From a virus (taxonomy: Duplodnaviria > Heunggongvirae > Uroviricota > Caudoviricetes), in the IMG/VR virus record IMGVR_UViG_2695420687_000016: DNA of 3,380 nucleotides; one strand, given 5' to 3'. Made by a program: the position numbers and the translations under genes. Positions within the stretch are counted from its first letter, which is position 1. The number at the start of each line of letters is the position of its first letter. Shown here piece by piece: positions 1-3,380 of the stretch. A model generated the notes under the pieces. The model saw only the letters and a list, made by a program, of their open reading frames with translations, ran no database searches and had not been told where the DNA came from.

Positions 1-237
1 ATGCCAGAGATCAAATCGACGGCGCTGCCACAGGTTCAGACCGGCATTCCTGCGACGCTCTCATATGATTTACTCGCCAGACGCCCGGATCTACAAGCCA
101 TGCGCTGGTATGTTCAGGCATCGCTAAATCAGGTAGATGCAGCACGTGCACTGTTCTATCCGANCTTNGANANNAAANNGTNTTACAATATGATCTACGA
201 AGAAATCCGTAAAAAGAAAGCACAAAACGCATCATAG
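1..237 (+). pseudogene. Fragment of an outer-membrane efflux factor (TolC/NodT/OprM family). OMF-like sequence occupies nt 1-162; the in-frame tail (183-237) does not resemble the family.
   Basis: Translation ...LSYDLLARRPDLQAMRWYVQASLNQVDAARALFYP matches the conserved internal OMF motif (compare OprM/CusC LLxRRPDIxxAEhxLxAAxAxIGxAxAAFFP), which normally sits about 180 aa before the C-terminus. Here the frame ends 25 codons later after ambiguous bases (164-182) with the unrelated tail YNMIYEEIRKKKAQNAS. Family assignment is from memory. Confidence 0.6.
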
Positions 238-278
238 CTCACCAAACAACTAGTCACCAGTTAAGACACCGCAAAATT

Positions 279-315
279 TACCCATAGGTATTTACTTTTT
301 AAATACCTATGGGTA
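279..315. repeat. Perfect 16-bp inverted repeat (tacccataggtattta / taaatacctatgggta) with a 5-nt spacer, followed by T-rich tatccttcttttcat. Candidate + strand intrinsic terminator or protein-binding palindrome.
   Basis: Direct reverse-complement check of 279-294 against 300-315 is perfect. T-rich run at 316-328 on the + strand; A-rich run at 272-276 upstream. Confidence 0.6.
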
Positions 316-501
316 TCCTTCTTTTCATACCAACCCACCCCGCCCCACAGAATGCAGGGCAATACTTCGAGTTACCAGGCAGTGGTCAGGGGTTAAGTAG
401 CCAGCCCGAGGCGTAAGAACATGACGGCAGGGTTCAACTTTAATAACTATGCAGCAGGTTTTTGTTCCGCTACCCCGGCGTTAAGGGGAAATGAGGTCAG
501 C

Positions 502-657
502 ATGGATACTATCGATCTTGGCAACAGCGAATCTCTGGTATGTGGCGTGTTCCCCAACCAGGACGGTACGTTCACCGCAATGACGTATACCAAAAGCAAA
601 ACGTTTAAAACCGAAAATGGTGCCCGTCGCTGGCTGGAAAGAAACTCAGGTGAGTGA
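502..657 (+). CDS. ydfA: Small prophage protein YdfA-like (51 aa), first ORF of the dicB operon.
   Basis: ATG at 502 preceded by GAGG (493-496) at 5 nt; 51 codons, same length as K-12 Qin YdfA; positioned before ydfB-ydfC-dicF-dicB. An alternative upstream ATG at 421 would give 78 aa. Confidence 0.65.
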   Translation: MDTIDLGNSESLVCGVFPNQDGTFTAMTYTKSKTFKTENGARRWLERNSGE

Positions 658-658
658 T

Positions 659-787
659 ATGGATTTTGACACAATCATGGAAAAGGCTTACGAAGAATAC
701 TTCGAAGGCCTTGCCGAAGGCGAAGAAGCTCACAGCTTCAACGAATTTAAACAGGTGCTTTCCAGTTCGGCAAAATCTAACGGCTGA
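659..787 (+). CDS. ydfB: Small acidic prophage protein YdfB-like (42 aa), translationally coupled to ydfA.
   Basis: ATG at 659 lies 1 nt after the ydfA stop (TGA 655-657); AGGTGAG Shine-Dalgarno just upstream; 42 aa (MDFDTIMEKAYEEYFEGLAEGEEAHSFNEFKQVLSSSAKSNG), same length as K-12 YdfB. Below the 60-aa cutoff of the ORF track, found by hand translation. Confidence 0.6.
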   Translation: MDFDTIMEKAYEEYFEGLAEGEEAHSFNEFKQVLSSSAKSNG

Positions 788-816
788 TAAGCGAAACAGC
801 ACCGCGAGGAATCAGT

Positions 817-1035
817 ATGCAGAAACGAGAACCCGTCATCATCGCGCCAGACTATACCGATGATGAACTTTATGAGTGGATGCGCCAGAAAATTAATGCA
901 GCGCAGGATCTGAAATGGGCTAATGAAGCCAGAGCTAAGCAGGCTGAAAATCTGTCCGCTCTGGAGCAGGATATCACCAATCTGGAAAAAGCAGCGGCAT
1001 TAAGCATTGCCAGAATGATTACATACCCGCGTTAA
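817..1035 (+). CDS. ydfC: Small prophage protein YdfC-like (72 aa), predicted helical/coiled-coil.
   Basis: ATG at 817 preceded by GAGGA at 8 nt; 72 aa, same length as K-12 YdfC; sequence (…KINAAQDLKWANEARAKQAENLSALEQDITNLEKAAALSIARM) is heptad-like. Confidence 0.7.
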   Translation: MQKREPVIIAPDYTDDELYEWMRQKINAAQDLKWANEARAKQAENLSALEQDITNLEKAAALSIARMITYPR

Positions 1036-1375
1036 TAGCTAACCAACGAAGCTAAGGTTGGTAATTAAGGAGTTCTCCACGGGTGAGGTGGAGTGCGTGT
1101 GCCGGACACGGGTGAGCATCCGGCACTGACAGTTTACTGAAAGGATATTTCCCTGAAAAGTCAGACCATAACGCGAAAGCGCACGGCGAGGTAGCTGGTT
1201 CATAGATAGCCTGTCGTTAAATTTTCGTCGACCGTGCGCTTCCGGTTGTGGCACTCCGCGAAATGGCGCGGCGGTAAGTATGGCGGGGTTATTCCTTCCC
1301 CGTTGAGGACACCGGGTTGTCAGGTTGACCATACGCTTAAGTGACAACCCCGCTGCAACGCCCTCTGTTATCAAT
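1036..1375 (+). promoter_or_regulatory. About 340-nt untranslated, GC-rich, hairpin-dense leader between ydfC and dicF; presumed precursor/processing region of the dicF transcript.
   Basis: No credible + strand ORF. Perfect stems at 1099-1106/1119-1126 (gtgccgga/tccggcac), 1177-1186/1232-1241 (aagcgcacgg/ccgtgcgctt) and 1314-1322/1342-1350 (gggttgtca/tgacaaccc). DicF is known to be excised from a polycistronic transcript. Confidence 0.5.
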
Positions 1376-1433
1376 TTTCTGGTGACGTTTGGCGGTATCA
1401 GTTTTACTCCGTGACTGCTCTGCCGCCCTTTTT
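1376..1433 (+). ncRNA. dicF: DicF small regulatory RNA (about 53 nt plus U-tail), the ftsZ-targeting antisense sRNA of the Qin-type dicB operon.
   Basis: Sequence tttctggtgacgtttggcggtatcagttttactccgtgactgctctgccgccc followed by ttttt matches the DicF RNA as I recall it (Rfam DicF family); located immediately upstream of dicB as in K-12. Confidence 0.85.
1391..1433 (+). terminator. Intrinsic terminator forming the 3' end of DicF: GGCGG/CCGCC closing stem with inner stem-loop, then a T5 run.
   Basis: ggcgg (1391-1395) pairs with ccgcc (1423-1427); ttttt at 1429-1433. Confidence 0.6.
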
Positions 1434-1437
1434 AAAG

Positions 1438-1585
1438 TGAATTTTGTGATGTGGTGAATGCGGCTGAGCGCACGCGGAACAGTTAAAACCAAAAACAGTG
1501 TTATGGGTGGATTCTCTGTATCCGGCGTTAATTGTTAACTGGTTAACGTCACCTGGAGGCACCAGGCACCGCATCACAAAATTCA
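1438..1585 (+). promoter_or_regulatory. Long-range inverted repeat able to form a 19-bp RNA duplex (one G-U) bracketing the dicF-dicB spacer; candidate RNase III processing helix or translational control element for dicB.
   Basis: Arm 1438-1456 tgaattttgtgatgtggtg against arm 1567-1585 caccgcatcacaaaattca (reverse complement tgaattttgtgatgcggtg), 18 of 19 identical. The right arm ends 6 nt before the dicB Shine-Dalgarno GAGGA (1591-1595). Confidence 0.5.
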
Positions 1586-1602
1586 TTGTTGAGGACGCGA
1601 TA

Positions 1603-1791
1603 ATGGAAACGTTATTACCAAACGTTAATACGTCTGAAGGTTGTTTTGAAATTGGTGTCACTATCAGCAATCAGATATTTACTGAAGATGCCATTAATAA
1701 AAGAAAACACGAACAGGAACTGCTAAATAAAATATGCATTGTTTCGATGCTGGCCCGTTTACGTCTGATGCAAACAGGATGCAGGCAATGA
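1603..1791 (+). CDS. dicB: Cell-division inhibitor DicB (62 aa). In K-12 it acts through MinC/ZipA and also blocks ManYZ-dependent phage DNA entry.
   Basis: ATG at 1603 with GAGGA 7 nt upstream; product METLLPNVNTSEGCFEIGVTISNQIFTEDAINKRKHEQELLNKICIVSMLARLRLMQTGCRQ is very close to K-12 DicB as I remember it (MKTLLPNVNTSEGCFEIGVTISNPVFTEDAINKRK...), same length. The longer listed ORF 1498..1791 is an in-frame upstream extension with no better start signal. Confidence 0.85.
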   Translation: METLLPNVNTSEGCFEIGVTISNQIFTEDAINKRKHEQELLNKICIVSMLARLRLMQTGCRQ

Positions 1792-1979
1792 ATACGGCAT
1801 TTGTACTCGTTCTGACTGTTTTGTTTGTTTCTGGTGAACCGATTGATCTTGTTATTGACATACATGACTCAATGGAAGAATGCATGACTGCCGCGGCAGA
1901 GCAAAAAATTCCCGGGAACTGTTATCCTGTCGACAAAGTTATTCGCATGAACAATAACGAAATCCCGGCAGGCCTTTAA
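1788..1979 (+). CDS. ydfD: YdfD-like small membrane protein (63 aa; K-12 YdfD is a lysis-inducing protein), translationally coupled to dicB.
   Basis: ATG 1788-1790 overlaps the dicB stop TGA 1789-1791 (ATGA); 63 aa, same length as K-12 YdfD; N-terminal hydrophobic helix TAFVLVLTVLFVSG. The listed ORF 1734..1979 is an in-frame extension. Confidence 0.7.
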   Translation: MNTAFVLVLTVLFVSGEPIDLVIDIHDSMEECMTAAAEQKIPGNCYPVDKVIRMNNNEIPAGL

Positions 1980-2071
1980 AACAGCCCCATAATAAATATC
2001 CGGCTTTATTTTTATATGTCAGCAATGGCAGGGATTTGTTCACCCTTAAATCTGTAATGAGGTAAAACAAA

Positions 2072-2653
2072 ATGAGTAAAGTCTTTATTTGCGCCGCCAT
2101 TCCGGACGAACAGGCAACAGCAGAAGGCGCTAAACCTGTGGCCACTGCCATTGAAGCAGGCGACGAACGCCGGGCAAGAGCCAAATTTAGCTGGTTATTT
2201 CTGGAACAATACCCGGAAGCCCAGGACTGTGCTTATAAATTTCTTGTCTGCGAGGATAAACCCGGCATGGCCCGCCCTGCTCTCGATTCCTGGGATTCCG
2301 AATATATGCAGGAAAACCGCTGGAATGAGGAGTCGGCTTCCTTTGTTCCGGTCGACCCTGAACCGGATACAGAAACTGTTAACTTTAATCAGTTATCTGA
2401 AGACAAGCGGGCTGCTGTCCTTGTCAGGTTCGGTACACATGAAAATATCACCGTGGATATGGTCATCAATGCAAGCGGGCTTCTCGGCGATGACGAGATG
2501 ACGACTTTTGATGGACACCTCACTGAAGCAATTATCAGGACTAAAGAAATTAACGCCATGTATCCTGAGCNNCNNNCTGNGTACATCNNCCCGCTGCCAA
2601 AGGCGTTGACGCCGAGCAATCCGCGCTGGATAATGAGTAGACCATCTCACTGA
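2072..2653 (+). CDS. Hypothetical acidic protein (193 aa; about 32 Asp/Glu against 15 Lys/Arg in the first 165 residues), no family recognised; occupies the ydfE position downstream of ydfD.
   Basis: ATG at 2072 immediately after an in-frame stop, GAGG 9 nt upstream; long ORF with protein-like composition. The C-terminal region crosses ambiguous bases (2571-2588), so the last 30 or so residues are uncertain. Confidence 0.6.
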   Translation: MSKVFICAAIPDEQATAEGAKPVATAIEAGDERRARAKFSWLFLEQYPEAQDCAYKFLVCEDKPGMARPALDSWDSEYMQENRWNEESASFVPVDPEPDTETVNFNQLSEDKRAAVLVRFGTHENITVDMVINASGLLGDDEMTTFDGHLTEAIIRTKEINAMYPEXXXXYIXPLPKALTPSNPRWIMSRPSH

Positions 2654-2684
2654 TTGACATATCACGTTCAGGGCGCATATTCAG

Positions 2685-3380
2685 ATGTCCATATATAAAA
2701 TTCCTCTCCCGCTCAATATTCTGGAAGCAGCGCAAGACCGTATCACCTGGACACTCAATACCCTGCCTCGCGTATGCGTGTCTTTTTCTGGCGGTAAAGA
2801 TTCTGGTTTAATGCTCCATCTGACCGCGGAACTGGCGAGAAAACTCAATAAAAAAATTTATATTTTATTCATCGATTGGGAAGCGCAGTTTACCTACACC
2901 ATCGACTATGTCCAGTCTCTACGGAAACAATATGCCGACGTCACTGAAGCGTTTTACTGGGTAGCGCTGCCATTAACAACGCAAAATTCGCTTTCCCAAT
3001 ATCAACCAGAATGGCAATGTTGGGAACCGGGTATTGAATGGGTGCGTCAGCCACCAAAAGACGCAATAACCGATCCTGAATTTTTCTCGTTTTATCAACC
3101 CGGAATGACCTTCGAACAATTCGTGCGTGAATTTGCCGATTGGTTTTCGCAAAAACGTCCGGCAGCGATGATGATCGGCATCCGCGCTGATGAGTCCTAT
3201 AACCGTTTTGTCGCCATCGCCAGTTTAAATAAACAGCGTTTTGCCGACGATAAGCCCTGGACTACTGCTGCGCCAGGCGGACACAGTTGGTACGTTTACC
3301 CCATCTACGACTGGAAAGTTTACCTGGTGCAAATAGTACGCCTGCCTGCTGGAATAGCTCGGTCGCTTCGATGGTGGTAG
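2685..3380 (+). CDS. PP-loop ATP-pyrophosphatase / PAPS-reductase-like protein (YbdN/IbrA-like, DUF3440-type), 231 aa as read; likely truncated or disrupted near its 3' end compared with the roughly 400-aa family.
   Basis: Canonical PP-loop motif SFSGGKDS (SGGKDS encoded at nt 2787-2804); downstream family-like blocks (IDWEAQF, MIGIRADES, PIYDWK). ORF ends at TAG 3378-3380 with a tail (VYLVQIVRLPAGIARSLRWW) that does not resemble what normally follows the DW motif. Confidence 0.75.
   Translation: MSIYKIPLPLNILEAAQDRITWTLNTLPRVCVSFSGGKDSGLMLHLTAELARKLNKKIYILFIDWEAQFTYTIDYVQSLRKQYADVTEAFYWVALPLTTQNSLSQYQPEWQCWEPGIEWVRQPPKDAITDPEFFSFYQPGMTFEQFVREFADWFSQKRPAAMMIGIRADESYNRFVAIASLNKQRFADDKPWTTAAPGGHSWYVYPIYDWKVYLVQIVRLPAGIARSLRWW

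Follow-up and report, generated by a model that had tools for sequence, protein, structure and literature searches.

A dicF-dicB module in lambdoid prophage DNA within a patchwork viral assembly

Results

Gene content of the locus

The window, i.e. the whole 3,380-nt stretch of DNA that was analysed (IMG/VR record IMGVR_UViG_2695420687_000016), contains the small RNA gene dicF followed by dicB, and both genes are located inside a complete early-left operon of the dicBF type, the gene order of which equals that of the Qin prophage of Escherichia coli K-12 and of other prophages. The features of this operon are listed below.

279..315 (+): perfect 16-bp inverted repeat with two operator-like 12-mers, TACCCATAGGTA at 279-290 and its complement at 304-315
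502..657 (+): ydfA (DUF1391), 51 aa; Pfam PF07151, 96.2 bits; 49/51 residues identical to K-12 YdfA
659..787 (+): ydfB, 42 aa; 39/42 residues identical to K-12 YdfB; phrog_2061
817..1035 (+): ydfC, 72 aa; 72/72 residues identical to K-12 YdfC; phrog_1744
1036..1375 (+): untranslated, G+C-rich, structured stretch, 340 nt; 331/340 bases identical to K-12
1376..1428 (+): dicF small RNA, 53 nt; Rfam DicF match with structure line
1429..1602 (+): dicF-dicB spacer and dicB leader, 174 nt; 173/174 bases identical to K-12
1603..1791 (+): dicB, 62-aa cell-division inhibitor, allele WP_000449200.1; full-length Pfam and NCBIfam matches
1788..1979 (+): ydfD (DUF1482), 63 aa; Pfam PF07358, 79.7 bits; 46/63 residues identical to K-12 YdfD
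2072..2570 (+): prophage exonuclease (RecE/ExoVIII type), first 166 codons; phrog_2082, profile positions 1-166 of 823

An initial annotation had assigned positions 1376-1791 to a dicF-dicB division-inhibition and phage-exclusion module, and these limits proved exact, running from the 5' end of dicF to the stop codon of dicB. Downstream of dicB, the start codon of ydfD overlaps the dicB stop codon (ATGA), an arrangement given which ydfD is possibly translationally coupled to dicB. The ydfD gene, whose K-12 counterpart is annotated as 'lysis protein' in NC_000913, has diverged from K-12 much more than dicB. Strain DCE7 has an exonuclease gene of 2472 nt, with which the 5' part in the window agrees at 496 of 499 positions; this part ends at an artefactual junction, with divergence from the DCE7 gene starting within the N-bearing positions 2571-2589. 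For two minus-strand ORFs overlapping this region (1404-1670, 88 aa; 1337-1492, 51 aa), no gene is annotated at the corresponding position in the K-12, DCE7 and CAU16175 loci.

The dicF small RNA

Scanning both strands of the window against Rfam revealed a match to the DicF family (RF00039) at 1377-1428 on the plus strand, which covers model positions 1-52 of 52 and scores 76.7 bits (E = 1.9e-16) against a gathering score of 48. Comparison of 1376-1428 with K-12 dicF (b1574, taken from NC_000913) showed identity at all 53 bases, those of the single-stranded 5' part as well as those of the 3' hairpin. The Rfam structure line, the predicted fold and the sequence place the arms of the terminator hairpin at 1391-1397 and 1421-1427 and its inner stem at 1399-1402 and 1414-1417, and the T-run TTTTT at 1429-1433 follows directly 3' of the hairpin, giving the form of an intrinsic terminator. 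Synteny with K-12 dicF is likewise maintained, and the DicF precursor region is identical to that of K-12 at 135 of 137 positions. The Rfam scan that had been proposed as a check of the initial annotation was thus positive, and its statement that dicF is present and intact is borne out by family score and K-12 identity alike.

The dicB gene and its allele

The dicB open reading frame is intact, with 62 codons starting at an ATG at 1603 and a stop codon at 1789-1791, and is preceded by a Shine-Dalgarno sequence (GAGGA, 1591-1595) located 7 nt 5' of the ATG. The encoded peptide matched Pfam PF05358 from end to end (positions 1-62 of 62) with 132.5 bits (E = 4.3e-39; cut-off 27) and NCBIfam NF049927 with 132.6 bits (cut-off 100), in agreement with the earlier statement that dicB, too, is present and intact. 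Both genes show the similarity to K-12 Qin dicF and dicB on which the initial annotation had made its claim depend, and the identity of dicF and dicB at 1376-1791 is confirmed, far beyond chance.

DicB shares 54 of 62 residues (87.1%) with its K-12 homologue and differs by K2E, P24Q, V25I, Q36H, R38Q, P57Q, K58T and A61R. The substitutions named in the initial annotation (K2E, P24Q, V25I, P57Q, K58T, A61R) were all correct, and Q36H and R38Q are additional. An allele with eight substitutions in 62 residues, three of them clustered in the C-terminal heptad and five (Q24, I25, Q38, T58 and R61) rare among or unique within the natural alleles compared, could have drifted to a different activity or lost its activity, for example by no longer binding MinC or by acting on another membrane target, and the module would then neither inhibit division nor exclude lambda-type phages. 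A sequence search of the PDB with DicB gave no hits at E up to 1 and neither a structure nor a mutational map was found, so that the substitutions could not be mapped on a structure. However, the open reading frame is of full length, its HMM score reaches the level of typical family members, and all eight differing positions also vary among the natural alleles, a set of roughly 15 alleles out of about 90 related loci. The conserved blocks TLLPNVNTSEGCFEIGV, FTEDAINKRK and SMLARLR are retained. Moreover, the exact dicB DNA (189/189 nt; named dicB in RefSeq, WP_000449200.1) is found in eight complete E. coli genomes, and an identical protein occurs in Escherichia albertii NBRC 107761 and in six IMG/VR prophage contigs, a degree of conservation that does not suggest decay. 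We therefore consider a drifted or inactive DicB very improbable and retain the reading of a DicB of the K-12 kind.

DicB and its small neighbours matched none of the PADLOC defence-system models; separately, the unrelated PAPS-reductase-like fragment near the right end of the window gave, on its own, weak matches to BrxP and DndC.

Assembly integrity of the window

Beyond the operon, the window is an assembly patchwork in which prophage DNA is confined to 180-2570. The remaining parts are:

1-163: fragment of the chromosomal efflux gene mdtP
2590-2633: ptsP fragment, 44 nt
about 2626-3319: ybdN-like PAPS reductase gene
3319-3378: gdhA fragment

At the left join (164-182), the sequence is a consensus of mdtP and the 3' end of a repressor gene, with N placed exactly where the two disagree, and Ns of the same pattern break up the exonuclease sequence at 2571-2589. 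These N-bearing joins are spurious overlap merges made by the assembler. A search for the left junction, leading from mdtP into the repressor 3' end, returned no match in 185,579 species-representative genomes, as would be expected if the junction were an artefact of this assembly alone. The sister record IMGVR_UViG_2695420564_000009 (L014) aligns with window positions 180-3380 over 3201 bases, of which 3200 are identical, and shares the Ns at 2571-2589. Three apparent coding features were accordingly discarded as readings across chimeric joins, namely a 193-aa ORF at 2072-2653, a 78-aa ORF at 1-237 and the end of the ORF at 2685-3380. The earlier view of the window as prophage accessory DNA therefore holds for 180-2570 and fails for the rest, which consists of unrelated chromosomal fragments and artefactual joins. 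Due to the spurious joins, genomic context is not readable from this window, which as a chimera is unsuited to inferring it.

Probable control region and repressor

The motif TACCCAYAGGTA occurs within the inverted repeat at 279-290 and 304-315 and in three more copies between the cro-like and cI-like genes of the sister record, amounting to five sites in 4278 bases where 0.31 are expected; none of 200 shuffled sequences reached five. The regions of L014 with operator-like motifs are 645-722 and 1177-1213. A simple terminator scan also flags the repeat at 279-315 as terminator-like; it is probably an OL/PL-type control region, the equivalent of dicBp, rather than or besides a terminator. A weak candidate promoter was read from the sequence by eye, with TTTACT at 291-296 as putative -35 and TATCCT at 314-319 as putative -10 hexamer; these match the consensus at 8 of 12 positions and thus fall below the limit of nine consensus positions used in our promoter scan.

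The window retains only the last 18 codons of the repressor gene (183-236), the remainder being replaced by the mdtP fragment at the artefactual join, and the sister record holds on its left side a complete 139-aa cI/DicA-like repressor gene at 716-1135 together with the cro-like gene. Upstream of 464, in the operator/promoter part, no alignment with K-12 was obtained, which points to a different immunity type.

Untranslated stretches flanking dicF

The untranslated parts on either side of dicF are 97.4% (1036-1375) and 99.4% (1429-1602) identical to K-12, and the spacer contains the hairpin CCTGG-AGGCA-CCAGG. In K-12, transcription starts upstream of ydfA, and DicF is generated as a 190-nt precursor by RNase III and as a 53-nt form by RNase E (PMC10448788). 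By length and homology with K-12, the 5' end of the corresponding precursor would lie near position 1239, which the predicted MFE fold assigns to the 3' arm of a long hairpin (z-score -2.77).

Measured over 25 distinct operon sequences, mean pairwise differences of 1.4% for 1036-1375 and 1.5% for 1429-1602 are the lowest in the operon, compared with 2.6-9.0% for the ORFs (dicB 4.4%, ydfD 9.0%). This low variation suggests a constraint at the RNA level that extends beyond DicF itself. Positions 1426-1635 also resemble the Rfam family STnc100 (RF02076), with 38.7 bits (E = 3.7e-6) against a gathering score of 47. A first scan of eight other dicB loci, K-12 included, gave a similar match 3' of DicF in each of them, and most loci of a second set gave one as well; these matches scored 31-39 bits, and one in phage P1 scored 33.4 bits. 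As every locus remains below the curated threshold, membership of the spacer in STnc100 was rejected and the match is kept as a resemblance only. That the flanking stretches carry functional RNAs of their own, notably an STnc100/PasD-related RNA directly 3' of DicF, and that the locus would thereby form a cluster of three or more regulators, is a tentative and rather doubtful proposal; if true, it would apply to every dicBF operon, that of K-12 included, and would not be peculiar to this window.

Two hairpins at 1078-1128 carry GGGTGAG in their loops, and an HK022 put-like antiterminator was considered as an explanation both for them and for transcription past the DicF terminator. It was rejected for lack of similarity to HK022: a comparison of 1036-1440 with the HK022 genome returned nothing beyond chance 23-mers (E = 6.5), and neither of the two GGGTGAG occurrences of HK022 is located in its early region.

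Pieces of these stretches recur elsewhere. Phage vB_EcoP_phi367 carries the two-hairpin GGGTGAG piece (61-73 nt, within 1065-1137) with 90-95% identity, 5' of a gene for PAPS reductase. The piece at 1256-1352 is present in both P1 and P7 with 78-82% identity and overlaps the beginning of the 'dicF-like region' annotated in P1. At three further loci, an isrK and C4 antisense RNA module of the P1 immI/antirepressor type is located between the STnc100-like element and dicB (L059 1400-1875, L056 1394-1878, L021 1458-1878), and DicF was detected 5' of the STnc100-like element in L059 and L056 only.

Prevalence, DicF variants and mosaic structure

Of 5426 complete E. coli genomes, 4731 contain a match to positions 1040-1800 (761 nt) and 4188 contain one to dicB when this gene is searched by itself, so that similar DNA is carried by about four in five of them, with a median of two such places per matching genome. 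For the entire stretch 1040-1800, identity did not exceed 97.6% in any of the 5426 genomes.

Comparison along the operon revealed two parts of different affinity. From 464 to about 1490 the sequence is Qin-like, with 95-100% identity to K-12, whereas the part between about 1570 and 2570 agrees with the DCE7/CAU16175 prophage at 99-100% and with K-12 at only 75-89%; the similarity switches between 1491 and 1569, inside the dicF-dicB spacer. The locus of E. albertii NBRC 107761 is 98.7% identical from 1078 onwards. Prophages carrying the identical dicB encode a variant DicF with a different inner stem-loop, which scores below the RF00039 threshold of 48:

L002 6338-6387: variant DicF
L003 4777-4826: variant DicF
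L007 2777-2826: variant DicF

With Rfam scores of 41-43.5 bits, these variants are missed by annotation, and no dicF is annotated in the RefSeq records L002 and L003.

The window thus combines a DicF of the canonical form with a DicB allele that is in the minority. Among the loci fetched, the exact dicF, its upstream sequence and this dicB allele occur together in the sister record only. The switch at 1491-1569 may reflect either natural lambdoid mosaicism or a switch made by the assembler between two resident prophages. Were the latter the case, the genes would be real and the module an assembly chimera, to which two co-resident dicBF prophages would have contributed a K-12-type left half (464 to about 1490) and a right half of the DCE7/E. 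albertii type (about 1570 to 2570), merged in a near-identical spacer. Several observations fit such a merge, namely the at least four spurious joins between unlinked loci in the window, the median of two such places in matching E. coli genomes, the position of the switch inside a stretch that is 98-99% identical between the prophage types, the restriction of the combination to the sister record and the ceiling of 97.6% identity for the full-length segment. However, unlike the spurious joins, the switch shows neither Ns nor irregularities, and a different genome (L016) carries the same kind of combination, with a canonical-type DicF (A10G) and an identical DicB. Mosaicism of this sort is, moreover, normal in lambdoid phages. 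On balance, we regard an assembly-made module as improbable, and both genes are intact in either case.

Proposed mechanism

With its observed sequence identity, family memberships, intact ORF and RNA, synteny and operator repeats, the stretch 180-2570 is assigned with high confidence to the early-left (PL-type) dicBF operon of a Qin-like lambdoid prophage, of which it represents a piece. By homology with K-12, each biochemical step could then proceed as follows. A cI/DicA-type repressor bound to the paired operators at 279-315 would keep the operon switched off, and derepression would yield a single polycistronic RNA, in which RNase III would cut the long upstream duplex near 1239 and RNase E would trim the product to the 53-nt DicF ending at its own intrinsic terminator. 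Together with Hfq, DicF would pair with ftsZ mRNA near the ribosome-binding site and repress its translation, as expected of an RNA identical in sequence to that of K-12 (PMC6832061, PMC10448788), and manX, pykA and xylR would be its other mRNA targets. Read-through past the DicF terminator would permit translation of DicB, which would bind MinC and bring it to the septal ring via ZipA, dissolving the Z ring, and which would also, via MinC, block the sugar-uptake system ManYZ and with it the entry of lambda-type phage DNA.

For the Qin prophage of K-12, DicF has been reported to repress ftsZ, and DicB to block division in a MinC/ZipA-dependent manner and to inhibit phage entry that depends on ManYZ (PMC6832061, PMC10448788); the functions assigned by the initial annotation are those published for K-12 and would hold here by analogy. 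DicB-MinC binding with the ZipA-dependent division block, and the inhibition of ManYZ, have been described for the K-12 allele only (PMC6832061), and we infer from this literature that the present allele would likewise block division and phage entry.

The dicF-dicB module is a textbook one and the allele is catalogued, so both are already known. The value of the analysis is mostly one of annotation, in that 180-2570 can be labelled as lambdoid prophage DNA with a conditionally toxic division-inhibitor pair, which in K-12 additionally confers exclusion of ManYZ-dependent phages. A further outcome concerns the DicF variant that accompanies this dicB allele, which is common and escapes annotation.

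Comparison with known systems

Among the closest known relatives is the dicBF operon of K-12 Qin (ydfABC-dicF-dicB-ydfDE), with which the window shares gene order and spacing, the complete dicF sequence and an identical YdfC protein, while its dicB agrees in length, start context and ATGA overlap with ydfD. In contrast, DicB differs at 8 of 62 and YdfD at 17 of 63 residues, and the downstream ydfE of Qin is interrupted by IS2, whereas the 5' part of the exonuclease gene in the window is of the intact DCE7 type.

With regard to the spacer, its 174 nt align to the whole model of the STnc100/PasD family, a group of small RNAs from prophages (RF02076; E = 3.7e-6), and the consensus stem CCGGG...CCCGG of that family compares with CCUGG...CCAGG in the spacer, with changes on both sides. 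In Stx phages, canonical STnc100 belongs to the late region, where it follows stx2, and not to the early-left operon (PMC12370729).

The right half of the operon finds its nearest counterpart in the prophage of DCE7 and CAU16175, located next to yccA, where dicB is identical at 189 of 189 nt in both strains; in DCE7, ydfD agrees at 190 of 192 nt and the 5' part of the exonuclease gene shows the near-identity given above. The dicBF-type operon of E. albertii NBRC 107761 encodes the identical DicB protein. All of these prophages carry the DicF variant with the altered inner stem-loop, whereas the DicF of the window is canonical.
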